Assembly (NCBI GenBank): GCA_046497275.1
Contig: JAWOFX010000137.1
Location: forward strand, 2,642-34,641
Source: Promethearchaeia archaeon
GTDB lineage: Archaea; Asgardarchaeota; Lokiarchaeia; Sigyniarchaeales; SOKP01
Length of the DNA stretch: 32,000 nt
Direction: 5' to 3'
Position 1 is the first letter of the stretch, and each line of letters starts with the position of its first letter. The notes below the pieces were generated by a model. It saw nothing but the letters and a program-made list of their open reading frames with translations, was not told the DNA's origin and searched no databases. The translations under genes were made by a program, and so were the position numbers. Below are positions 3,165 to 29,132 of the stretch, piece by piece.

Positions 3165-3710
3165 ATGCCAGATTATGATTATACATTCAAGCTTTTACTC
3201 TTAGGTGACGCTTCAGTTGGTAAGACATCATTTACTAAGAGATATTGTTACAATATTTTTAATCCAAGCGAACGTCTCACCATAGGTGTTGATTTTCACG
3301 TTAAAACAATCGAAATAGATTATAAAGGCGAACCTAAAAAAATAAAATTGCAGATTTGGGATATTGGAGGAGAGGAACGTTTTAGGTTCCTTCTCCCAAC
3401 ATATTGTTTGGGAGCGAACGCAGCTTTTCTACTATATGATATAACTCGTCCCTCCACTTTGGAGAATATTCCTGAATGGACTACGATTGTAAGACAAAAA
3501 GGGGGAGCTATTCCAATTATGTTAGTAGGGGCAAAAATCGATTTAGAACCAGACCAGAGAAAAATTGACCGTGATAATGGGATACAAATTGCTGAACGTA
3601 ATAAATTAGCTGGTTTTGTGGAAATCTCCTCAAAGACAGGTGTGAATGTTGATGAAGCCTTCGATCTTTTGGCGGAATTGACTTTAGAGAAAATGGAAAG
3701 TAAAACTTAG
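3165..3710 (+). CDS. Rab-like Ras-superfamily small GTPase (Asgard-type)
   Basis: G1 GDASVGKT; switch I TIGVDF; KLQIWDIGGEERF (G3); LLYDIT; G4 GAKID; G5 EISSK. No C-terminal Cys prenylation motif (ends ...KMESKT). Confidence 0.95.
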   Translation: MPDYDYTFKLLLLGDASVGKTSFTKRYCYNIFNPSERLTIGVDFHVKTIEIDYKGEPKKIKLQIWDIGGEERFRFLLPTYCLGANAAFLLYDITRPSTLENIPEWTTIVRQKGGAIPIMLVGAKIDLEPDQRKIDRDNGIQIAERNKLAGFVEISSKTGVNVDEAFDLLAELTLEKMESKT

Positions 3711-16376: not shown

Positions 16377-18059
16377 ATGGAGAATAACGCTAAATTTATA
16401 TTTGTAACTGGCGGTGTGATGAGTGGTATAGGAAAGGGAGTAGTCACAGCGAGCTTAGGAAAGATTCTCCAATTTAGGGGATTTAACATCTCAGTTGTTA
16501 AGATCGATCCGTATTTAAATGTTGATCCTGGAACATTAAATCCTATCGAGCATGGAGAGTGTTTTATTACAGAAGAAGTATGGGATTTTGAACCTGTGCC
16601 AGATTCCGATGAGCGAGTATATAAAATAAGTGAGATAGATCAAGATTTTGGTACATATGAAAGGTTTTTAGGAATCACAATTCATCCCTCTAATAATATT
16701 ACATCTGGACAAATTTACCTCTCAACTATTCTTAGAGAACGAAAAGGCAAATTTTTAGGAAGAACTGTCCAACTGATTCCTCATGTTACAAAAATGATAA
16801 AAGATAGGTTATTCGAAATTGCTGCGAAAGATGATTTAGATGTATTATTAGTAGAATGTGGGGGAACTGTCGGTGACTTAGAATCAAGCATCTTTTTAGA
16901 AAGTTTCCGACAGTTAAGACTTGAATTACCTAAAAATAATACTGCTTTTGTTCACGTAACATTAGTTCCTTATTCTAAGGCTGTTGGGCAACAAAAATCA
17001 AAACCAACCCAACACTCTGTTAAACAATTACAGAGCGCAGGACTTCAACCCGATATAATAATTGGCAGGAGTGAACAACCTCTGGAGGAAGATATAAGAA
17101 ATAAAATCTCCTTATTTTCTAATATACCTAAAAAAGCAGTGGTTTCTAACCCTGATTTAGATAATATTTACGAATTACCTTTATTATTTGAAGAACACCA
17201 ACTAGGAGATTTACTCTGTGAAATTCTTGATTTAAAAGCTAAACTGGTATCCTATAGTGAAATAACCAATTTCTCTGAATGGAAAAAAACTGTAGAAGTA
17301 TTTAGAAAAGCTAATAAGACTATAAAAATCGGAATGCCTGGAAAATATTTTAACATAACAGATTCTTATATCTCAATTAACGACGCATTAGAACACGCAG
17401 CAGCACACCAAGGCTATAAAACAGACCTTAAAATGATTAATATTGATGAAGAAACCGAAGTTAAAGAACAATTAAAAGAATGTGATGGAATTTTACTAAC
17501 TCCTGGATTCGGAGAAAGAGCCGTCGAGGGTATGATAGGGAGCGCTCTCTATGCGATGGAAAATAAAGTTCCATTTTTAGGAATATGTTTTGGCGCGCAA
17601 TTATTTTTTGTAGCATTTTGTAGAAAATATTTGGGATTAACTGGCGCAAATTCTACGGAAATAAATCCTAAAACTCCACATCCCGTAGTTGATTTATTAG
17701 AAAGCCAGAAAGAAGTGACTGAGAAGGGGGGAACAATGAGATTGGGAGGATTAAAAATCTTTATCAAAGAGGATACTAAATTATATAATGCGTATCAAAA
17801 AGAAGAGGTCGTGGAACGATTTCGGCACAGATATCATATTAATTCAAAATATATTAAAAAAGAAGGGAAAGAAAACGGCATTAGAATATCAAGTACAGAT
17901 GAGACAGGTAAAATTATTAATAGTATAGAATTGAGTGATCCAAACCATTGGATGGTAGGCACTCAGTTCCACCCCGAATTTAAATCTGCTCCGTTTAAAC
18001 CTTCACCTGTCTATTCTGCATTCATTAAAGAAGCGATAAAATACAGGAATAATAAATGA
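16377..18059 (+). CDS. pyrG: CTP synthase
   Basis: FVTGGVMSGIGKG; KIDPYLNVDPGT; GGTVGD; KPTQHSV; glutaminase GICFG and QFHPEF intact. Confidence 0.98.
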   Translation: MENNAKFIFVTGGVMSGIGKGVVTASLGKILQFRGFNISVVKIDPYLNVDPGTLNPIEHGECFITEEVWDFEPVPDSDERVYKISEIDQDFGTYERFLGITIHPSNNITSGQIYLSTILRERKGKFLGRTVQLIPHVTKMIKDRLFEIAAKDDLDVLLVECGGTVGDLESSIFLESFRQLRLELPKNNTAFVHVTLVPYSKAVGQQKSKPTQHSVKQLQSAGLQPDIIIGRSEQPLEEDIRNKISLFSNIPKKAVVSNPDLDNIYELPLLFEEHQLGDLLCEILDLKAKLVSYSEITNFSEWKKTVEVFRKANKTIKIGMPGKYFNITDSYISINDALEHAAAHQGYKTDLKMINIDEETEVKEQLKECDGILLTPGFGERAVEGMIGSALYAMENKVPFLGICFGAQLFFVAFCRKYLGLTGANSTEINPKTPHPVVDLLESQKEVTEKGGTMRLGGLKIFIKEDTKLYNAYQKEEVVERFRHRYHINSKYIKKEGKENGIRISSTDETGKIINSIELSDPNHWMVGTQFHPEFKSAPFKPSPVYSAFIKEAIKYRNNK

Positions 18060-18886: not shown

Positions 18887-20020
18887 ATGGAATATAAAGA
18901 TGAAAGACCTGCTATTTTAATGTTGAAAGATGGACGTTTTTTTGAAGGAATCGGTTTTGGTGCAACCAAAATTGTCACTGGAGAAATAGTATTTACCACT
19001 ATAACTGGAGCTGGATATAATGAAACCTTAACAGATCCATCTTATCAAGGGCAAATAGTTGTGATGACACATCCTTTAGTCGGTAATTATGGAGTACCCC
19101 CTTGGGAAAAAGATCAAAACGGATTGATTAAATTTTTTGAGTCTGAATCAATTAAGGTTGATGGTTTTGTAGTAAATGAATGTTGTAAACAACCACATCA
19201 TTATGAAAGTATAAAAACTTTAGATGAGTTCTTAAAAGAACAAAATATTCCTGGAATTGAGTGGATTGATACAAGAGCAATCACTAAAATATTAAGAGAA
19301 GAAGGTGTGCAAGTTGGATTGTTAGCGGTATATGATACAGGGGAAATTCCAAATATTGAATATTTGAAAGAAATAGTAAAGGAGTCGAAAGACCCAAACC
19401 TCCGCCATTTAACAAGCGAAGTATCTACTAAACAAGTTCAGAAATATGTTCCATCCAATCCCTCTGGTCGAGTTGTTATTTTAGATCTTGGGGTGAAGTA
19501 TAGTATCATTCGAAATATGCTTCAACGTAATTTCGAAGTTATTTTAGTTCCATATAATTATTCCTACTCCCAAATTATAGAATATGAGCCTGATGGTGTT
19601 TTGATTTCAAATGGACCTGGAGATCCAAAGCTTTATACGAATGCTATAAATGTATGCGAAAAACTTATTGAAAATGAAGTCCCCACTTTTGGAATATGTC
19701 TGGGAAATCAAATAATAGGATTGGCTGCTGGAGGAAACTCTTACAAACTTAAATATGGTCATAGAGGAGGAAATAAAACAGTTATTAATCCAAATAACCA
19801 GAAATGTTATATAACTTCTCAAAATCATGGATTTTGTATTCGAGATTTTAAGAAAGGAGGCTTTATCGAATTTCTTAAAAATATAGATGATAGTTCTAAT
19901 GAAGGAATAATTCATGAAAATAAGCCGATCTTGGGTGTCCAATTCCATCCAGAGGCATCGCCGGGACCCCTTGATTCAACATATCTTTTTGATAAATTTG
20001 TAAAAATTATGGGGTTTTAA
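18887..20020 (+). CDS. carA: Carbamoyl-phosphate synthetase small subunit, copy 1, glutaminase intact
   Basis: LTDPSY; SNGPGDP; GICLGNQ (Cys271); QNHG; QFHPEASPGP (His354). Confidence 0.97.
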   Translation: MEYKDERPAILMLKDGRFFEGIGFGATKIVTGEIVFTTITGAGYNETLTDPSYQGQIVVMTHPLVGNYGVPPWEKDQNGLIKFFESESIKVDGFVVNECCKQPHHYESIKTLDEFLKEQNIPGIEWIDTRAITKILREEGVQVGLLAVYDTGEIPNIEYLKEIVKESKDPNLRHLTSEVSTKQVQKYVPSNPSGRVVILDLGVKYSIIRNMLQRNFEVILVPYNYSYSQIIEYEPDGVLISNGPGDPKLYTNAINVCEKLIENEVPTFGICLGNQIIGLAAGGNSYKLKYGHRGGNKTVINPNNQKCYITSQNHGFCIRDFKKGGFIEFLKNIDDSSNEGIIHENKPILGVQFHPEASPGPLDSTYLFDKFVKIMGF

Positions 20021-20021
20021 C

Positions 20022-23000
20022 ATGCCATTAGATACAACTATTAAGAAAGCACTAATACTAGGTTCGGGTGGAATTCGTATAGGACAAGCTGGAGAATTTG
20101 ATTACTCTGGCTCTCAAGTATTGAAAGCACTTAAAGAAGAGGGTTTGGAAACCATTCTCATAAATCCAAATATCGCCACAATTCAGACGGATCCGGAACT
20201 TTCCGATAAAGTTTATCTTTTGCCTATTAATGTAAAATATGTTGAAGATGTTATAAAGAAGGAGAGACCAGAGGGGATATTATTAGCGTTTGGAGGACAA
20301 ACCGCTCTAAATGTAGGCGTTGAGCTTAAAGAACTAGGAATTTTAGAAAAGTATAATGTTCGTGTATTAGGAACTCCCATAGAAGCCATTCAAAAAACCG
20401 AAGACAGAGATTTATTTGTAAAAGCTATGGAAGAGTCTAAAGCGCCAGTCTGCAGAAGTAAAGCTGTTAGCAGTTATTCTGATGCCCTGAAAGTAGCAAA
20501 AGAATTTGGGTTTCCATTAATGATACGGGTTGCATATACTCTCGGAGGAAGGGGATCTGGAATAGCTAAGAATATGAAAGAATTTGAAAAAATGGCTCGA
20601 CGGGGAATCGCACAATCTCGTATTAATCAAATCTTAATTGAAGAGAGTGTGTGGGGATGGAAAGAAGTAGAATATGAGGTTGTAAGGGATTCTGTTGACA
20701 ATTGTTTTATCAATTGTAATATGGAAAATTTCGATCCCGTAGGTATACATACTGGAGAAAGTATAGTTGTTGCTCCTTCACAAACTCTCACTAATGAAGA
20801 ATATCATATGCTCCGTTCTGCGTCAATTCGTATAATTAGAAATTTAGGAATTATAGGAGAATGTAATATCCAGTATGCTTTAAACCCAAAATCAAAAGAA
20901 TTTCGAGTGATTGAAGTTAATGCAAGATTATCTCGATCTTCAGCATTAGCCTCTAAAGCTACAGGTTATCCTTTAGCATATATTGCTGCAAAACTCGCAA
21001 CTGGATATAATCTCCCCGAATTAAAAAACAAAATTACAGGTATCACAACAGCCTGTTTCGAACCTGCTTTAGATTATGTTGTATTAAAATTTCCTCGCTG
21101 GGATCTCACAAAATTTCAAAGAGTTGATAGACATCTTGGTAGCCAAATGAAAAGTGTGGGTGAAGTCATGGCTATAGGACGAACTTTTGAGGAAGTTCTT
21201 CAAAAGGCAATTAGAATGTTGGATATAGGAATGAAAGGTGTCGTTGCAAATGATTTAGAATCTATTGAGGACATTAATGAATTAAAATATAATCTCCAAA
21301 ACCCAACTGATCTTCGGGTTTTCCGCATAGTTGAAGCCATTAAACGAGGAATCAGTATTGATGAAATTTATCAAATTTCGAGAGTAGATAAATGGTTTCT
21401 ATATAAAATTAATAATATTATTGAAATTGAGACTAGTCTTAAGTCATTAAAACTATTAGAATCAAGTGATAAAGAAAAATGTTATATTCTGAAGCATGCG
21501 AAGAGATTTGGCTTTTCAGATGGACAAATAGGAAAGATTTTGGGAGTAGATTCAATAAAAGTAAGAAATCTACGAAAAAAATATAATATTGAACCATATG
21601 TTAAAAGAATTGATACTTTAGCAGCCGAATGGCCAGCCATTACAAATTACTTATACTTAACTTATGGTGCTTCAGAACATGATATCAATTTTGAAGAGGA
21701 ACAAAAGAAAAATTTAAAGAAAATAATCGTTCTTGGAAGTGGAACCTATCGTATCGGTGCTAGTGTTGAATTCGACTGGGGATCGGTTAATTGTCTTTGG
21801 GGATTGAAGAAACAAGGAATTGATCAAGCAATTATCATTAATTACAATCCAGAAACAGTCTCAACAGATTTTGATATTTCTGATAAACTCTATTTTGAAG
21901 AACTTTCTGGTGAGCGTGTTTTAGATATTGCAGAACTAGAGATGGCCGATGGAGTAGTAGTGTCGGTTGGTGGACAAATTGCTAATAATCTTGCAGCTAA
22001 ATTTTCAAAATACAGTGAATTTTTCAGGAGAACAGGCATTAATATATTAGGAACACATGGATCTCGTATAGACATGGCGGAAGACAGAAGCAAGTTTAGC
22101 ACACTATTGGATCAACTCGATATAAAACAACCTAAATGGAGAGCTTTAACAACCAAAAATGAAGCTTTAACGTTTGCAGATGAAGTTGAATATCCTGTTC
22201 TTGTACGCCCATCTTATGTCTTGAGTGGTGCTGCTATGCGAGTATGCTATGATGAGAAAACTTTAAGAGATACATTAGATCTTGCTGCTTCTGTTTCTAA
22301 GGAATATCCAGTAGTAATTTCAAAATTCTTTACAAATGCTCGAGAAGTGGAATGTGATGGTGTCTGTGATGGAAAAAACGTTTTTATCGGCGCAATTGTA
22401 GAACATATTGAAAATGCTGGGATACATTCTGGTGATGCGACTATGAGTATACCCCCTTTTACTATCCCTCAAAAGGTTATATCAATAATAAAAGACTATA
22501 CAAAACGAATTGCCTTAGCCTTGAAAATAAAAGGACCATTTAATGTACAGTATTTAGTAAAAAATGGAGATGTTTTTGTTATTGAATGTAATCTCCGTTC
22601 AAGTCGAAGCATGCCTTATGTTTCTAAGACACGAGGTATAAATTTAATGCGTTTAGCTGCAGAAGTTATCATGGGAAATGAAATCCCTGAAAGATTACTA
22701 CACTTACCATATGGAAATTATGTATCTATCAAAGCTCCCATGTTTTCCTTTATGCGTTTAGATAAAGCAGATCCTATATTAGGAGTGGAAATGGCGAGTA
22801 CTGGAGAAGTTGCTTGTTTTGGCGATGATTTTTCAGATGCTCTCATAAAAGCATTGGAGGCTACTGATCGGCAAATTCCTATACATGGAGGAAATGTCTT
22901 AATCTCTGTTGCGGGGGAGGAATTAAAAAAAAAAGTTATTCCTATAGCAAAAAAATTAAAAAAAATGGGGTTTACATTATTTGCGACAGAAGATACGGCT

Positions 23001-23333
23001 AAAGCTTTGAATAAAAACGAAATATATTCTGTTCGATTATATAAAATCCATGAATATGGACAAGAACCTAATATTATTGCTTGTTTACAAAATGGTGCCA
23101 TTGATTTAGTAATTAATATACCACTTCCTATACCTCAAGAGGAAAAATTCCGTCAAATCATTGAAGATGAATACACTATTAGAAGAATGGCAGTAGATTA
23201 TAACATACCAGTTATAATTAATATTGAATTAGCTGAAGCTTTAGTTAATGCTATAGAAAAAGTGCGGAGGAGAGATCTTACCATCAAATCTCTAAATGAA
23301 TATCATAAGACTTTAAAAGAAGTATATTGGTAA
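20022..23333 (+). CDS. carB: Carbamoyl-phosphate synthetase large subunit, copy 1
   Basis: IGQAGEFDYSG; HTGESIVVAP; IEVNARLSRSSALASKATG; RPSYVLSG; HSGDA; C-terminal MGS domain. Starts 1 nt after the carA1 stop. Confidence 0.98.
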   Translation: MPLDTTIKKALILGSGGIRIGQAGEFDYSGSQVLKALKEEGLETILINPNIATIQTDPELSDKVYLLPINVKYVEDVIKKERPEGILLAFGGQTALNVGVELKELGILEKYNVRVLGTPIEAIQKTEDRDLFVKAMEESKAPVCRSKAVSSYSDALKVAKEFGFPLMIRVAYTLGGRGSGIAKNMKEFEKMARRGIAQSRINQILIEESVWGWKEVEYEVVRDSVDNCFINCNMENFDPVGIHTGESIVVAPSQTLTNEEYHMLRSASIRIIRNLGIIGECNIQYALNPKSKEFRVIEVNARLSRSSALASKATGYPLAYIAAKLATGYNLPELKNKITGITTACFEPALDYVVLKFPRWDLTKFQRVDRHLGSQMKSVGEVMAIGRTFEEVLQKAIRMLDIGMKGVVANDLESIEDINELKYNLQNPTDLRVFRIVEAIKRGISIDEIYQISRVDKWFLYKINNIIEIETSLKSLKLLESSDKEKCYILKHAKRFGFSDGQIGKILGVDSIKVRNLRKKYNIEPYVKRIDTLAAEWPAITNYLYLTYGASEHDINFEEEQKKNLKKIIVLGSGTYRIGASVEFDWGSVNCLWGLKKQGIDQAIIINYNPETVSTDFDISDKLYFEELSGERVLDIAELEMADGVVVSVGGQIANNLAAKFSKYSEFFRRTGINILGTHGSRIDMAEDRSKFSTLLDQLDIKQPKWRALTTKNEALTFADEVEYPVLVRPSYVLSGAAMRVCYDEKTLRDTLDLAASVSKEYPVVISKFFTNAREVECDGVCDGKNVFIGAIVEHIENAGIHSGDATMSIPPFTIPQKVISIIKDYTKRIALALKIKGPFNVQYLVKNGDVFVIECNLRSSRSMPYVSKTRGINLMRLAAEVIMGNEIPERLLHLPYGNYVSIKAPMFSFMRLDKADPILGVEMASTGEVACFGDDFSDALIKALEATDRQIPIHGGNVLISVAGEELKKKVIPIAKKLKKMGFTLFATEDTAKALNKNEIYSVRLYKIHEYGQEPNIIACLQNGAIDLVINIPLPIPQEEKFRQIIEDEYTIRRMAVDYNIPVIINIELAEALVNAIEKVRRRDLTIKSLNEYHKTLKEVYW

Positions 23334-23384
23334 TTATTCCTATTTTTTGAAAATAATTTTAGAATGAGTAGATAATCTTTGTTA

Positions 23385-24476
23385 TTAATAACCCTCTTCT
23401 AAATCTACAATATTTATATAATCCTTCTTCCCCTCAACCATCCTAGCAATATTTTCAACAAGCTCATTCCATCTCAACAAGTCATTAAAAGGAGAATATC
23501 CTCTATGAGGGGAGAATATTATATTTTTTAAATCATGAAATGGATAATGATAAGGATATTTGTTGTTATTTTTGTCTGCGATGGGATTTTTTTCATACCA
23601 AACATCGACACATGCTCCCAAAATTAATTTATTTTTTAGTGCAAAATAGAGATCCTTTTCATTTATGATTTCACCTCTCGAAACATTCACTATTATTCCT
23701 TTATCTCCTAATGAGGTTAATTCTTTTTTAGTAATCATATTTATTGTTAATTTAGTCACTGGAATTGCGATTATAAGTATTTCACTTTCTTTTAAAAAGT
23801 CTTCAATATTTGGGTATGAAAACTTTTTTACAGGAGTTGGTAATGATTTACTTTTATGAGACCAATCTTTTCGAAAAACGGAAAATTCTATATCAAACCC
23901 AGCAAGAAAATTGTGAACTTTTTGGTTTATAGCTCCATAACCAAGCAGTCCTATGTTTTTGAATCTTAGAGGGATTGAAGCAGCTTCTTTATCTCCAGTT
24001 CTCCACTTCCCTTCTTTCATCCAGAGATGATGTGGAATAATTTTACTCATAAATGTAAGAAGAAGCGAAACGGCATGTTGAGCGACAAAATATGAATTTC
24101 CATGACCATTAGCAAGCAAGACATTCCGATTTTGATTAATTTTTTTAAAATTATCGATAATATGATTGACTCCAGTTCCGGGTACTATAAAAAGTTTTAA
24201 TCTTTTAGCGTTTTCAAGTAATTCCATACTAGGACGCCAACCTACAATGATATCCGCTTCTTTGGAAATCTTTAATATCTCCTCTTCCGTAAAATTATCT
24301 GGAAAAATTAGATTTAATCTCTTGAATCTTTTTAAATTATTTGAAATGTATGATTCGACTTCCTTTGGTAATTTAGAAAGAAATAAAACATTAATTTCAA
24401 AATTAGGATTTGATAATTGATTTTTATGAAGACTCATGATATATTCCAACCTATGAAACTTTAAATAAATATTCAT
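23385..24476 (-). CDS. D-isomer-specific 2-hydroxyacid dehydrogenase (start may be Met14 at 24437)
   Basis: GTGVNHI; GLLGYGAI Rossmann motif; VNVSRG; DVW; SPH. Confidence 0.9.
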   Translation of the reverse strand: MNIYLKFHRLEYIMSLHKNQLSNPNFEINVLFLSKLPKEVESYISNNLKRFKRLNLIFPDNFTEEEILKISKEADIIVGWRPSMELLENAKRLKLFIVPGTGVNHIIDNFKKINQNRNVLLANGHGNSYFVAQHAVSLLLTFMSKIIPHHLWMKEGKWRTGDKEAASIPLRFKNIGLLGYGAINQKVHNFLAGFDIEFSVFRKDWSHKSKSLPTPVKKFSYPNIEDFLKESEILIIAIPVTKLTINMITKKELTSLGDKGIIVNVSRGEIINEKDLYFALKNKLILGACVDVWYEKNPIADKNNNKYPYHYPFHDLKNIIFSPHRGYSPFNDLLRWNELVENIARMVEGKKDYINIVDLEEGY

Positions 24477-24684
24477 TAAAATCTTTGATTTCTATTGGGA
24501 GGTTTTTTATTAGAGGCGATCCCTTTCTTTATTTAGTGGTTTGGATGATAAAAGCATTAAGGGGAACATAAAAATCTTTTTTTAAATTTTTTATTATAAT
24601 CTTATTTAGCCCTTACTAGAATTTGTAAGATAATTTAATTAATTATTTTTGATTATAATTAAGAAAAAAATAAGAGCGTCTTAA

Positions 24685-25818
24685 ATGATTTATAAGACAG
24701 AAAATCCCGCTATTTTAATGTTGGAAGACGGTTCGTATTATGAAGGTATAGGTATAGGAGCTATGAAAAAGATTATTGGTGAATTGACTTTTTCCACTAT
24801 TCCAGGTTCTGGTTATATTGAATCTTTAACAGATTCTGCCTATATGGATGAGATATTACTATTTACTTATCCATCGATCGGAAATTATGGTGTTCCACAA
24901 AAAGAAAGAGACAATTATGGCATTCTTAAACATTTTGAATCTGAATCCATAAAGGTCAAAGGAGTGGTTATGAATGAATATTGTAAAAATCCAAGTCATT
25001 ATGAAAGTATAAGGACCTTAGAAGAGTGGCTTTTAGAAGAAAATATTCCCGCCATCCAATGGATTGACACAAGACTCCTTACTCAAAAACTGGTTGAGGA
25101 AACACAAGCTTTTGCATTATTACAAGTCTTAGATCACCAAAAACAACCTGATTTAAAGAAATTAAGATTAGAACTACAAAATTTTTCAGCTCAAGCAGAT
25201 AAATTCCCTGTGTCTAAGGTGTCAACTGACAATATTCAAAAATACTCACCTACGGATCCAATTGGGAAAGTTGTGATATTAGATCTAGGAACTAAAAATA
25301 ATATAATAAGAACTCTAATATCAAAAGAACTTGAAGTAATAAAAGTCCCATATTTATACAATTTTGATAAGATTATGGAATTAAATCCAGATGGAGTTAT
25401 TCTTCCGAATGGACCAGGGGATCCTAAAATATTAAATGCTCCAATAAACTTAACTAGAGAATTAATAGACCATAATATTCCAACAATGGGTATTGGATTA
25501 GGTAATATGATTGTGGGACTAGCTGCGGATATGGAGGTATATAAAATGTCAGCAGACCATAGAGGGGGAAGAACAACTGTTGAATCATCGACAAATCATT
25601 GCTATATTACTTTTCAAAATCATGGATATTGTCTTAACTACAAAAAGTCCAAAAATTTTAATGAATTATATTTTGATAAAGATGATAAATCGAATGAGGG
25701 GCTGATTCATAAATCTAAACCTATTTTCTCCGTTGCTTTTAACCCAGAAGGAGCTCCTGGAGCACTCGATATCAAGGAAAAAACATTCAATCAATTTATT
25801 AATTTTATGGAGGTTTAG
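24685..25818 (+). CDS. carA: Carbamoyl-phosphate synthetase small subunit, copy 2, glutaminase catalytic residues absent
   Basis: Collinear 377-aa paralog of carA1, but with GIGLGNM in place of GICLGNQ, AFNPE in place of QFHPE, and LTDSAY in place of LTDPSY. Confidence 0.95.
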   Translation: MIYKTENPAILMLEDGSYYEGIGIGAMKKIIGELTFSTIPGSGYIESLTDSAYMDEILLFTYPSIGNYGVPQKERDNYGILKHFESESIKVKGVVMNEYCKNPSHYESIRTLEEWLLEENIPAIQWIDTRLLTQKLVEETQAFALLQVLDHQKQPDLKKLRLELQNFSAQADKFPVSKVSTDNIQKYSPTDPIGKVVILDLGTKNNIIRTLISKELEVIKVPYLYNFDKIMELNPDGVILPNGPGDPKILNAPINLTRELIDHNIPTMGIGLGNMIVGLAADMEVYKMSADHRGGRTTVESSTNHCYITFQNHGYCLNYKKSKNFNELYFDKDDKSNEGLIHKSKPIFSVAFNPEGAPGALDIKEKTFNQFINFMEV

Positions 25819-25820
25819 AA

Positions 25821-28800
25821 ATGCCTTTAGATAGATCTTTAAAGAAAATCTTAATTTTAGGTTCTGGAGCGGTGAGGATTGGGCAAGCTGGAGAATTTGA
25901 TTATAGTGGAAGCCAAGTCCTTAAAGCTCTAAATGAAGAGGATATAGAAACGATTTTAGTTAATCCCAATATTGCTACAATTCAAACAGATCCTCAAATG
26001 AGCTCAAAAGTATATTTACTGCCCATAAATATTAAATATGTTACAGAAATTATTAAAAAAGAAAGACCAGACGGCATATGTCTTTCATTTGGAGGGCAAA
26101 CTGGTCTAAATGTTGGAGTAGAACTTTATGAGGCAAGGATTCTTGATAAATATGGTGTTAGAGTGTTAGGGACCCCTATAGAAGCTATTCAAGATACGGA
26201 AGATCGCGATCTTTTTGTAAAAGCAATGAGTCGCGCAAATTGTCCGGTATGCAGAAATAGGGCTGTAAATTCATATGCTGAAGCAAAAAAGGTCGCGGAA
26301 GAGTTTGGTTTTCCTTTAATGTTAAGAGTTGCATATGTTTTAGGAGGTAAAGGATCGGGAATTATTCACGATTGGGATCAATTTGAAAGGATGGCAAAAA
26401 GAGGACTAGCGCAATCAAGAATTAATCAAATCTTAATTGAAGAAAGTGTGTGGGGGTGGAAAGAAATCGAATTTGAAATTCTAAGAGATGCAGAAGACAA
26501 TTGTTTTATAAATTGCAGTATGGAAAATGTAGATCCCTGTGGAATTCATACGGGAGACTCGATTGTGGTCGCTCCTGCTCAAACCTTAACTGATGAAGAA
26601 CTGCAATTACTGCGAAGCGCTTCGATCAGAGCAACTAAAGAAGTAGGTGTCTGTGGAGAGTGTAATATTCAATGGGCATTGGATCCTTTTTCAAAAAAAT
26701 TTAGAGCGATTGAAATAAATGCCCGGTTATCAAGATCGTCTGCTCTCGCATCGAAAGCAACTGGATATCCTCTGGCTTATATAGCAGCTAAGATTGCTAT
26801 AGGATATACACTACCTGAATTAAAAAATCAAATAACTCTCAAAACTACAGCAAATTTCGAACCTGCTACAGATTATATGGTTATGAAATATCCACGATGG
26901 GATTTAACTAAATTTGAGAAAGTTGACAGAAGAATTGGCCCTCAAATGAAAGGGGTCGGGGAATGCATGAGTATTGGGAGAGGTTTTGAAGAGGTTTGTC
27001 AAAAGGCGCTTAGAATGCTTGATATCGGTTTAAAAGGCTTTGTAGCAAATGATTTAGATCCTATTGAAGATATTAATGAATTAAAGTATGAATTAAGAAA
27101 TCCTACAGATCTTAGATTTTTAAGAATTGCCGATGCGATGAAAAGAGGGATATCTATCGATGAAATTTATGATAGATCTCGTATTGATAAATGGTTTTTA
27201 TATAAATTAAAGAACATAATCGAAATTGAAAATGAACTAAAAAACTTGGATTTTCTGGAATCTTCTAATGAACAAAAGGAATATTATCTAACAAAAGCAA
27301 AAAGATATGGTTTTTCTGACGGTCAGATTGCTAAGATAGTTGGGGTAAACACTCCAATGATACGCAGGTTAAGGAAAAAATATAATATAATTCCATATGT
27401 AAAACAAATTGATACCTTAGCAGGGCAATGCATCCCAAAACGCCATTATCTTTATCTAACCTATTGGGGAAATAAGCACGATATCGATTTTGAAGAAGAA
27501 GAAAAAGAAGAAATAAAAAAGGTAATCGTTTTAGGAAGTGGAACTTACCGAATTGGGGCAAGTGTAGAATTTGACTGGGGATCTGTTAACTGCCTTTGGG
27601 GATTACAGAATCTGGGAGTAGATAAAGCAATTATTATTAATTATAATCCTGAAACAGTAAGTACTGATTATGATATTTCTGATCGCTTATATTTTGAAGA
27701 AATTTCTGGAGAGAGAGTATTAGATATTTGTGAATTTGAAAGTCCCTATGGCATTGTGCTTAATGCAGGTGGACAAATTGCTCAAAATCTTGCAGCAAAA
27801 TTTGCTAAATATTCAGAATTCTTCCGAAAAACAGGAATAAATATTTTAGGTACCCATGGCTCTCGCATTGATATGGCAGAAGATAGAGCAAAATTTAGTG
27901 CCTTACTAGATCATTTAAATATAAAACAACCGAAATGGAGAGCTCTAACTATTAAAAGCGAAGCTCTAAAATTTGCAGATGAGGTGGGTTATCCCGTGTT
28001 GGTAAGACCTTCTTATGTTCTCAGTGGAGCAGCCATGCGAGTATCTTATGATGAGAAGACATTAAGAGATACATTAGATTTAGCGGCTTCTGTCTCTCAA
28101 GAATATCCCGTCGTAATGACAAAATTTTTCACAAATTCTCGAGAAGTAGAATGTGATGGTGTTTGTGATGGAAAAAATGTTTTAATAGGAGCAATAGTAG
28201 AACATATCGAAAATGCTGGTGTTCATAGCGGAGATGCTACGATGACAATTCCACCTCAGACAGTTTCTAAAGAAATAAGAAAGCAAATTGAAGAATATAC
28301 TAGAAAAATTGCTCTTGCCCTCAAAATTATAGGTCCATTCAATGTGCAATTCTTAGTAAAAAATGGAGATGTTTTTGTAATTGAATGTAATCTTCGTTCA
28401 AGTCGAAGCATGCCTTATGTTTCAAAAACAAAAGGAATTAATCTGATGAAGCTGGCTGCTGAGGTGATTATGGGAAATAGTATACCTAAACGATTATTAA
28501 ATTTACCATGTGGTAATTTTGTGGCTGTTAAAGCTCCTATGTTCTCATTTATGCGTTTAGATAAAGCTGATCCTATTCTTGGCGTGGAAATGGCGAGTAC
28601 AGGGGAGGTTGCTGTTTTTGGAGAGGATCTACCTGATGCTCTACTAAAAGCATTGGAAGCAGCCGAACAGAGTATTCCTATTCATGGAGGAAATGTTCTA
28701 ATCTCAGTTGCAGGAGAAGAATTGAAAAGAAAAATGATTCCTATCGCAAAAAAGTTAAAAAAAATGGGATTTACGTTGTTTGCTACTGAAGATACAGCTG

Positions 28801-29132
28801 AAGCACTTAGAAATAACGAAATATATTCTGTTCGATTATATAAAGTCCATGAATATGGAAAAGAACCCAACATTGTTGCATGTCTTCAGAATGGTGCCAT
28901 TGATATGGTAATTAATATACCACTTCCTACTTCTCAAGAAGAGAAATTTCGTCAGATAATTGAAGATGATTATACCATCCGAAGAATGGCGATTGATTAT
29001 AATATACCAGTCATAATTAATTTACAGCTCGCCGAGGCAATTGTGGATGCCATAGAAAAAGTGAGAACAAAGGAACTCTCTCTTAAATCTTTAAATGAAT
29101 ATCATCAATCCCTAGATGAGGTATATTGGTAA
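25821..29132 (+). CDS. carB: Carbamoyl-phosphate synthetase large subunit, copy 2
   Basis: 1103 aa, collinear with carB1; both ATP-grasp motif sets and the MGS domain are present. Starts 2 nt after the carA2 stop. Confidence 0.98.
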   Translation: MPLDRSLKKILILGSGAVRIGQAGEFDYSGSQVLKALNEEDIETILVNPNIATIQTDPQMSSKVYLLPINIKYVTEIIKKERPDGICLSFGGQTGLNVGVELYEARILDKYGVRVLGTPIEAIQDTEDRDLFVKAMSRANCPVCRNRAVNSYAEAKKVAEEFGFPLMLRVAYVLGGKGSGIIHDWDQFERMAKRGLAQSRINQILIEESVWGWKEIEFEILRDAEDNCFINCSMENVDPCGIHTGDSIVVAPAQTLTDEELQLLRSASIRATKEVGVCGECNIQWALDPFSKKFRAIEINARLSRSSALASKATGYPLAYIAAKIAIGYTLPELKNQITLKTTANFEPATDYMVMKYPRWDLTKFEKVDRRIGPQMKGVGECMSIGRGFEEVCQKALRMLDIGLKGFVANDLDPIEDINELKYELRNPTDLRFLRIADAMKRGISIDEIYDRSRIDKWFLYKLKNIIEIENELKNLDFLESSNEQKEYYLTKAKRYGFSDGQIAKIVGVNTPMIRRLRKKYNIIPYVKQIDTLAGQCIPKRHYLYLTYWGNKHDIDFEEEEKEEIKKVIVLGSGTYRIGASVEFDWGSVNCLWGLQNLGVDKAIIINYNPETVSTDYDISDRLYFEEISGERVLDICEFESPYGIVLNAGGQIAQNLAAKFAKYSEFFRKTGINILGTHGSRIDMAEDRAKFSALLDHLNIKQPKWRALTIKSEALKFADEVGYPVLVRPSYVLSGAAMRVSYDEKTLRDTLDLAASVSQEYPVVMTKFFTNSREVECDGVCDGKNVLIGAIVEHIENAGVHSGDATMTIPPQTVSKEIRKQIEEYTRKIALALKIIGPFNVQFLVKNGDVFVIECNLRSSRSMPYVSKTKGINLMKLAAEVIMGNSIPKRLLNLPCGNFVAVKAPMFSFMRLDKADPILGVEMASTGEVAVFGEDLPDALLKALEAAEQSIPIHGGNVLISVAGEELKRKMIPIAKKLKKMGFTLFATEDTAEALRNNEIYSVRLYKVHEYGKEPNIVACLQNGAIDMVINIPLPTSQEEKFRQIIEDDYTIRRMAIDYNIPVIINLQLAEAIVDAIEKVRTKELSLKSLNEYHQSLDEVYW

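Follow-up and report, generated by a model that had tools for sequence, protein, structure and literature searches.

A probable ammonia-dependent carbamoyl phosphate synthetase with a pseudo-glutaminase subunit in a family of Lokiarchaeia

Among ATP-grasp carbamoyl phosphate synthetases (CPS), the ammonia-specific form, CPS I, is ascribed to ureotelic animals and bacteria are credited with type II, which uses glutamine (PMC6022934, PMC4655335), the only kind that a 2018 review gives for bacteria (PMC6022934). In the E. coli enzyme, Cys269 and His353 of the small subunit CarA are essential for glutamine hydrolysis (PMC6245113); engineered loss of Cys269 or a block of the tunnel, as in the mutants C269S (PDB 1C30) and G359F (1M6V), is reported to end glutamine use and to leave ammonia use in place (titles cited in PMC4655335 and PMC6245113). 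In human CPS1 the glutaminase-like domain is still folded but is inactive, with Ser294 where the catalytic Cys would be, and the enzyme uses free ammonia (PMC4655335). Here we analyse a second carAB operon in a 32,000-nucleotide stretch of Lokiarchaeial DNA (contig JAWOFX010000137.1, from a genome 98.9% complete), referred to below as the window. The first gene of this operon, carA2 (24685..25818, + strand), encodes a CPS small subunit of full length whose class-I glutaminase site is dead, that is, a pseudo-glutaminase, and carB2 (25821..29132, +) encodes the cognate large subunit. We put at roughly 65% the probability that CarA2B2 is an ammonia-dependent two-subunit CPS. Free ammonia is probably its substrate, because the catalytic residues of the glutaminase have been lost yet the gene is kept by selection in more than 100 relatives. 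Full-text literature searches brought up no publication on a CPS from prokaryotes, Asgard archaea included, whose small subunit is inactive.

The catalytic loss was read directly from the carA2 codons, with positions mapped by alignment to CarA of E. coli K-12, and was followed through a joint alignment of 114 CarA2-type (Gly) and 37 CarA1-type (Cys) sequences. At the nucleophile position (E. coli Cys269, Cys271 in CarA1), CarA2 has Gly271 (codon GGA, 25495..25497, +); Gly occupies this position in 114/114 CarA2-type sequences and Cys in 37/37 CarA1-type sequences. The triad His (E. coli His353, His354 in CarA1) is replaced by Asn353 (codon AAC, 25741..25743, +), again in all 114. The triad Glu is retained as Glu355 (across the clade, Glu in 99 and Asp in 15), and Cys, His and Glu are all present in each of the 37 Cys-type proteins. 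With Gly271 and Asn353, CarA2 lacks the Cys-His-Glu triad of glutamine-hydrolysing CarA (EC 6.3.5.5). In addition, Met275 (codon ATG, 25507..25509, +) stands at the E. coli Gln273 position, where CarA1 has Gln, and Ala52 (24838..24840, +) stands at the Ser47 position, changing TDPSY to TDSAY. A sequence-only reading of this DNA had named these four substitutions, equated them with the same four E. coli residues and called CarA2 intact, full length and collinear with CarA1; codons and alignment agree on every point, the two proteins having 377 residues each and 50% identity. It had also taken all four for targeted losses, which the wider clade upholds for two of them: Cys-to-Gly and His-to-Asn are fixed, but at the Gln273 position the residue is Met in 37 sequences, Asn in 28, Val in 16, Ile in 14 and Phe in 7, and the Ser47 position is mostly Thr (Thr 91, Ala 11, Ser 6). 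Because its residue varies within the clade, the Gln273 position is released from constraint, and constraint is likewise lost at Gly313 and Lys289.

A pocket of this kind might still turn over glutamine or another amide by means of non-canonical catalytic residues. The CarA2 clade does keep Gly241, Pro242, Gly243, Asn311 and His312 invariant and Glu or Asp at 355, and CarA2 still passes the NCBIfam 'glutamine-hydrolyzing' model TIGR01368 (320.7 bits; cut-off 307.35). We nevertheless regard amide use as highly improbable, given that no conserved nucleophile is found at or near the site, that the glutamine contacts Ser47, Gln273 and Gln351 have either been exchanged or become variable, and that class-I amidotransferases require Cys (PMC6245113, PMC4655335). 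A search for a substitute nucleophile across the 114 sequences of the clade found neither a Cys nor a Ser that is invariant at any position.

As judged from a predicted structure, the fold of CarA2 is preserved. An N-terminal CPSase_sm_chain domain (PF00988, 6.1e-35) is followed by a class-I GATase domain (PF00117, 2.6e-29), and the AlphaFold model (predicted local distance difference test score, pLDDT, 90.9) matches both E. coli CarA (1a9x_B) and the N-terminal moiety of human CPS1 (5dot) with a template modelling (TM) score of 0.90. Across the CarA2 clade 48 columns are invariant. Besides the two catalytic replacements, Lys to Gln at position 134 and Asn to Asp at position 331 are switched in 114/114 sequences; further clade switches are Arg to Val at 137 (109/114), Val to Thr at 35 (107/114), Asp to Asn at 246 (107/114, with Asp still present in the window CarA2), Gly to Glu at 291 (102/114; Asp in the window), Tyr to Ala at 290 (92/114), Pro to Ala at 360 (86/114) and Gln to Ala at 351 (83/114). 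The HRGG motif is followed by Asn in every Cys-type sequence and by Arg-Thr in 114/114 CarA2-type sequences, the placement of the one-residue gap being ambiguous. Kept in the clade are Gly293 (110/114), Pro358, Gly359 and His312 (each 114/114) and Asn311 (113/114), which we take to be residues lining the ammonia tunnel of E. coli CPS; Pro360, Ala309 and Tyr261 are presumably tunnel-wall residues. Because new residues have become invariant in the clade, CarA2 is probably more than a passive partner. The interpretation given in the sequence-only reading is supported overall, its proposal of a structural partner needing this refinement.

Selection was gauged from the ratio of nonsynonymous to synonymous substitution (dN/dS), calculated by the NG86 method for genome pairs with usable dS. 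Seven such pairs give carA2 ratios of 0.10-0.16, compared with 0.06-0.09 for carA1, 0.04-0.11 for carB2 and 0.04-0.075 for carB1; one near-identical pair, differing at 7 amino acids, gives 0.30 for carA2. The reading frame is intact in 114/114 carA2 sequences. carA2 is under purifying selection and is not decaying, and the sequence-only reading was right to argue against random decay. The faster evolution of CarA2 could be read as the mark of a decaying or non-functional duplicate: the stem leading to CarA2 measures 0.32 and that leading to CarA1 0.06, a fivefold difference, and sequences share on average 65% pairwise identity in the CarA2 clade and 78% among CarA1. This is the least credible of the alternatives and is already contradicted by the low dN/dS, the intact frames, the 48 invariant columns and the retention of the gene since before several genera diverged.

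Searching 5.8 billion proteins for homologues gave over 100 cluster representatives whose identity to CarA2, 52-98%, exceeds that of CarA1, the close homologues being deposited under Promethearchaeota or Lokiarchaeota. Both the Gly and the Asn are shared by 114 CarA sequences from Lokiarchaeia/Promethearchaeota genomes and metagenomes, so carA2 is not peculiar to this assembly. In a survey of 301 genomes from the phylum, the family of the window (f1) was the only one in which CarA2-type genes were found. Ten of its 69 sampled genomes carry one, seven of these together with carA1B1; 47 have a Cys-type gene only (20 confirmed by motif, the remainder assigned by identity) and 12 gave no match. 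A carB2 orthologue follows carA2 in 10/10 genomes, and in five of the seven dual-operon genomes, including that of the window, both operons lie in tandem on one contig. In phylogenetic trees the CarA2 and CarB2 clades each have SH-aLRT support of 100 and are nested in the family after genus g4 diverges, with broadly parallel branching inside the two clades. Since both are nested in this way, an old duplication of the whole operon is indicated, and the data fit a single tandem event followed by vertical descent and many losses. Moreover, because the dead-glutaminase clade sits within one Lokiarchaeial family, CarA2B2 arose independently of vertebrate CPS I, in keeping with the archaeal parallel of the CPS I transition that the sequence-only reading had envisaged.

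The genomic surroundings bear on how ammonia might reach the enzyme. CarA2B2 could be a CPS that receives ammonia not from solution but from an ammonia-releasing enzyme docked on the remodelled pocket. In its favour, Gln134, Asp331, Arg296, Asn353 and Gly271 are new invariant residues and not simple losses, and in the three carA2B2-only genomes carA2 is immediately preceded by an open reading frame (ORF) of 345-356 residues. On the other side, flanks differ among the ten genomes and no partner gene is conserved beside carA2B2 in all of them, and the upstream ORF is limited to three genomes of genus g2, where it may reflect shared gene order; we therefore hold a docked supplier to be unlikely. 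The ORF itself has no Pfam or NCBIfam match and is on the same strand as carA2 (L032:958-2028(+), L034:10918-11976(-), L037:10813-11850(-)).

The large subunit has been altered mainly in one half and conserved in its chemistry. CarB1 and CarB2 have 1103 residues each and align without gaps at 77% identity. CarB2 keeps the ATP-grasp residues corresponding to E. coli Arg129, Arg169, Glu215, Gln285, Glu299, Asn301 and Arg303 and also Arg715, Glu761, Gln829, Glu841, Asn843 and Arg845, together with the ammonia-gate residues Cys232, Ala251 and Ala314 (the CPS gate is described in PMC8674909). All 13 ATP-grasp residues checked and the gate triad are present in 10/10 CarB2 sequences, in line with the earlier statement that both ATP-grasp sites are intact, and CarB2, with its two sites and gate, scores 1389 bits against TIGR01369. 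Within the family, 32 positions are fixed differently between CarB1 and CarB2, and 26 of the 32 fall in residues 1-552 (binomial test for asymmetry, p = 0.0003), with similar numbers of within-clade variable columns in the two halves (280 vs 309). By domain, the differences number 20 in the carboxyphosphate, 6 in the oligomerisation, 6 in the carbamoyl-phosphate and 0 in the allosteric domain. They include Tyr261 to Leu and Cys345 to Asn in the N-terminal half and, in the oligomerisation domain, a rewritten DTLAAEWPA.TN segment. It is with the carboxyphosphate and oligomerisation domains that the small subunit is in contact (PMC6245113).

In parts of codons 700-1100, carB1 and carB2 of the window are 0.80-0.82 identical at the nucleotide level, compared with about 0.70 over codons 1-700, and the C-terminal halves of the two window proteins cluster together in the tree (support 90/99). 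The stretch concerned, codons ~700-1103, corresponds to window positions 22100-23333 and 27900-29132. In genome G156, too, the C-terminal half of CarB2 is placed among CarB1 sequences; a tree with monophyletic CarB2 still passes the approximately unbiased (AU) test (p = 0.10), which is not decisive. These patterns suggest old partial gene conversion between the tandem carB paralogues in the window and in G156. That the N-terminal bias of the fixed differences is an artefact of such conversion was considered and rejected, as 26/32 persists without the three suspect CarB2 sequences; a still older conversion behind the bias is possible. The C-terminal half of CarB thus seems to behave as interchangeable between the two enzymes, with the N-terminal half and carA remaining distinct. 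This interchangeability and the lack of any fixed allosteric difference therefore suggest that CarA1B1 and CarA2B2 make the same product under the same regulation. A metagenomic contig (L054, JGI 3300022699) compared with window positions 21700-26020 gives dS of 0.17 for the carB1 C-terminus and 0.26 for the 2-hydroxyacid dehydrogenase gene, and further along 0.51 for carA2 and 0.60 for the carB2 N-terminus, a jump that points to recombination or mosaicism at the locus, or else to chimeric assembly of the metagenome contig.

The 26 fixed changes in the N-terminal half of CarB2, including Tyr261 to Leu, Cys345 to Asn and the rewritten DTLAAEWPA.TN segment, might also signal that CarA2B2 no longer makes carbamoyl phosphate and has passed to another ATP-grasp or regulatory role. 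This seems to us very unlikely, if marginally less so than amide use. Every catalytic residue checked at both ATP sites is kept, the allosteric domain has no fixed change, the C-terminal half appears exchangeable with that of CarB1, and in three genomes that have retained pyrB no CPS other than CarA2B2 was found. These three, G273, G153 and G168 (93, 92 and 99% complete), all belong to genus g2, and other species of that genus carry carA1B1 only, a one-or-other pattern that suggests that the two enzymes are interchangeable. Because pyrB, the gene for aspartate carbamoyltransferase, is kept in the carA2B2-only genomes (above the TIGR00670 cut-off in G168), these organisms need carbamoyl phosphate, and their gene content is the strongest, though not a conclusive, argument for a working CarA2B2 CPS. 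The claim that a sole CPS must be the supplier is weakened by the presence of carbamate kinase and ornithine carbamoyltransferase in 5/5 genomes checked, and the notion that carA2B2-only genomes are without glutamine synthetase was rejected, glnA being present in 5/5 genomes checked. Elsewhere, outside the window at G000:C13:1828-5244 (L048), genes for ornithine carbamoyltransferase, carbamate kinase and a FAD-dependent oxidase are clustered, the oxidase resembling ThiO or sarcosine oxidase at scores below the family cut-offs; a third transcarbamylase is present in G000 and its congener G183 and absent from the carA2B2-only genomes.

Taken together, the results are consistent with the following course. 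A tandem duplication of the whole carAB operon took place inside a single Lokiarchaeial family; CarA2 then changed fast and was conserved thereafter. The chemistry of CarB2 was kept, with change mainly in the half that touches the small subunit and receives ammonia. The pseudo-glutaminase CarA2 cannot form the thioester, and the product of carA2-carB2 would be carbamoyl phosphate made from bicarbonate, two ATP and free ammonia, the latter entering through the emptied glutamine pocket and passing into the retained tunnel. The presumed benefit is a saving of the ATP spent by glutamine synthetase, in an energy-limited fermenter that produces ammonia.

Several observations weigh against this reading. 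With ammonia, the E. coli enzyme works only when the concentration is very high (PMC6245113). In 100/114 CarA2-type sequences, Phe takes the place of a small residue at E. coli Ala309, and this Phe, or the invariant Arg after HRGG, could narrow the old tunnel and not open it. Carbamate kinase lies beside ornithine carbamoyltransferase in each of the five genomes checked, and because citrulline breakdown or carbamate kinase could provide carbamoyl phosphate, CarA2B2 need not be the supplier. Finally, glutamine would be available since glutamine synthetase is present, so that lack of glutamine does not force the change. On a fuller account, a natural two-subunit ammonia CPS would have evolved within some of the Lokiarchaeia, whose CPS is the prokaryotic one closest to the eukaryotic enzyme among the solved structures compared, and would owe nothing to vertebrate CPS I; in some species it would supplant the glutamine enzyme, so that pyrimidine synthesis bypasses glutamine; and the remodelled pocket, with its invariant Gly271, Asn353, Asp331, Gln134 and Arg296, would be a dedicated ammonia intake to the preserved tunnel. 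On this combined account we find the odds evenly balanced.

In the window, the two operons are arranged on the same strand. The gene pyrG for CTP synthase (16377..18059, +) lies upstream of carA1, as it does in G141 and G180. It is followed by carA1 (18887..20020, +), encoding the canonical glutamine-hydrolysing small subunit with Cys271, His354 and Glu356 (TIGR01368, 422 bits), and by carB1 (20022..23333, +), encoding the large subunit of the canonical enzyme. A gene of the D-2-hydroxyacid dehydrogenase family (23385..24476, -) lies between carB1 and carA2; it is lineage-specific, and elsewhere the carAB operons are directly in tandem. Because the gene upstream is divergent, carA2B2 must have a separate promoter, for which the AT-rich intergenic region ahead of carA2 (24477..24684, +) is the putative seat. 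carB2 starts 2 nucleotides past the carA2 stop, with GGAGG located ahead of it inside the 3' end of carA2, and downstream of carB2 lies a convergent gene for a glutamine-type NAD synthetase. Farther away, at 3165-3710, the window encodes a Ras-family small GTPase (Pfam Ras, 1.3e-42), a protein typical of Asgard archaea.

If the assignment is true, the existence in prokaryotes of a conserved CPS whose glutaminase subunit is dead would alter the CPS I/CPS II picture and would bear on how Asgard archaea manage energy and nitrogen. It also points to a systematic annotation error: because CarA2 still passes TIGR01368, proteins with a dead site are automatically named 'glutamine-hydrolyzing' in public records. 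The glutamine-type and dead-site enzymes form a natural matched pair that would be suited to mapping nitrogen-donor residues and the entry of ammonia.

Two complete CPS enzymes in one genome have precedents. Bacillus and Lactobacillus have paired arginine- and pyrimidine-specific isozymes. Fungi likewise have an arginine- and a pyrimidine-specific CPS (PMC6022934). In all such pairs both enzymes use glutamine, and they differ in regulation. The Lokiarchaeial pair resembles these in number, but here it is the nitrogen-donor site that differs and the allosteric domain that has no fixed difference. With E. coli CarAB (PDB 1JDB, 1A9X), CarA2B2 shares subunit architecture, fold (TM 0.90), operon order, catalytic residues and the gate triad. 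The E. coli enzyme is glutamine-dependent in nature, however, whereas the loss in CarA2 is natural, fixed and accompanied by further clade-specific changes in both subunits. The nearest parallel is vertebrate mitochondrial CPS I (PDB 5DOT/5DOU; EC 6.3.4.16), also an ATP-grasp CPS with a glutaminase-like domain that lacks the Cys, the position taken in CarA2 by Gly271. Human CPS1 is the top PDB match for both CarA2 (221 bits) and CarB2 (1067 bits). This likeness is best taken as ancestral and not convergent, because CarA1 too scores higher against CPS1 than against the E. coli protein; the scores are 293 against 225 bits for CarA1 and 1067 against 867 for CarB2, and given such values the relation of Asgard to eukaryotic CPS may merit a proper phylogeny. 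The differences from CPS1 are considerable. CPS1 is a single vertebrate polypeptide of ~1500 residues, whereas CarA2B2 is encoded by two genes in a clade inside one Lokiarchaeial family; CPS1 has Ser at the Cys position and keeps the His, whereas CarA2 has Gly and has lost the His too. CPS1 requires N-acetylglutamate. Its tunnel is blocked by Gln318, which replaces E. coli Gly293 (PMC4655335), whereas the CarA2 clade has Gly293 in 110/114 sequences and invariant Pro358 and Gly359. With the same confidence of about two in three that we attach to ammonia use, CarA2B2 would work like CPS I, but by these differences it stands outside that group.

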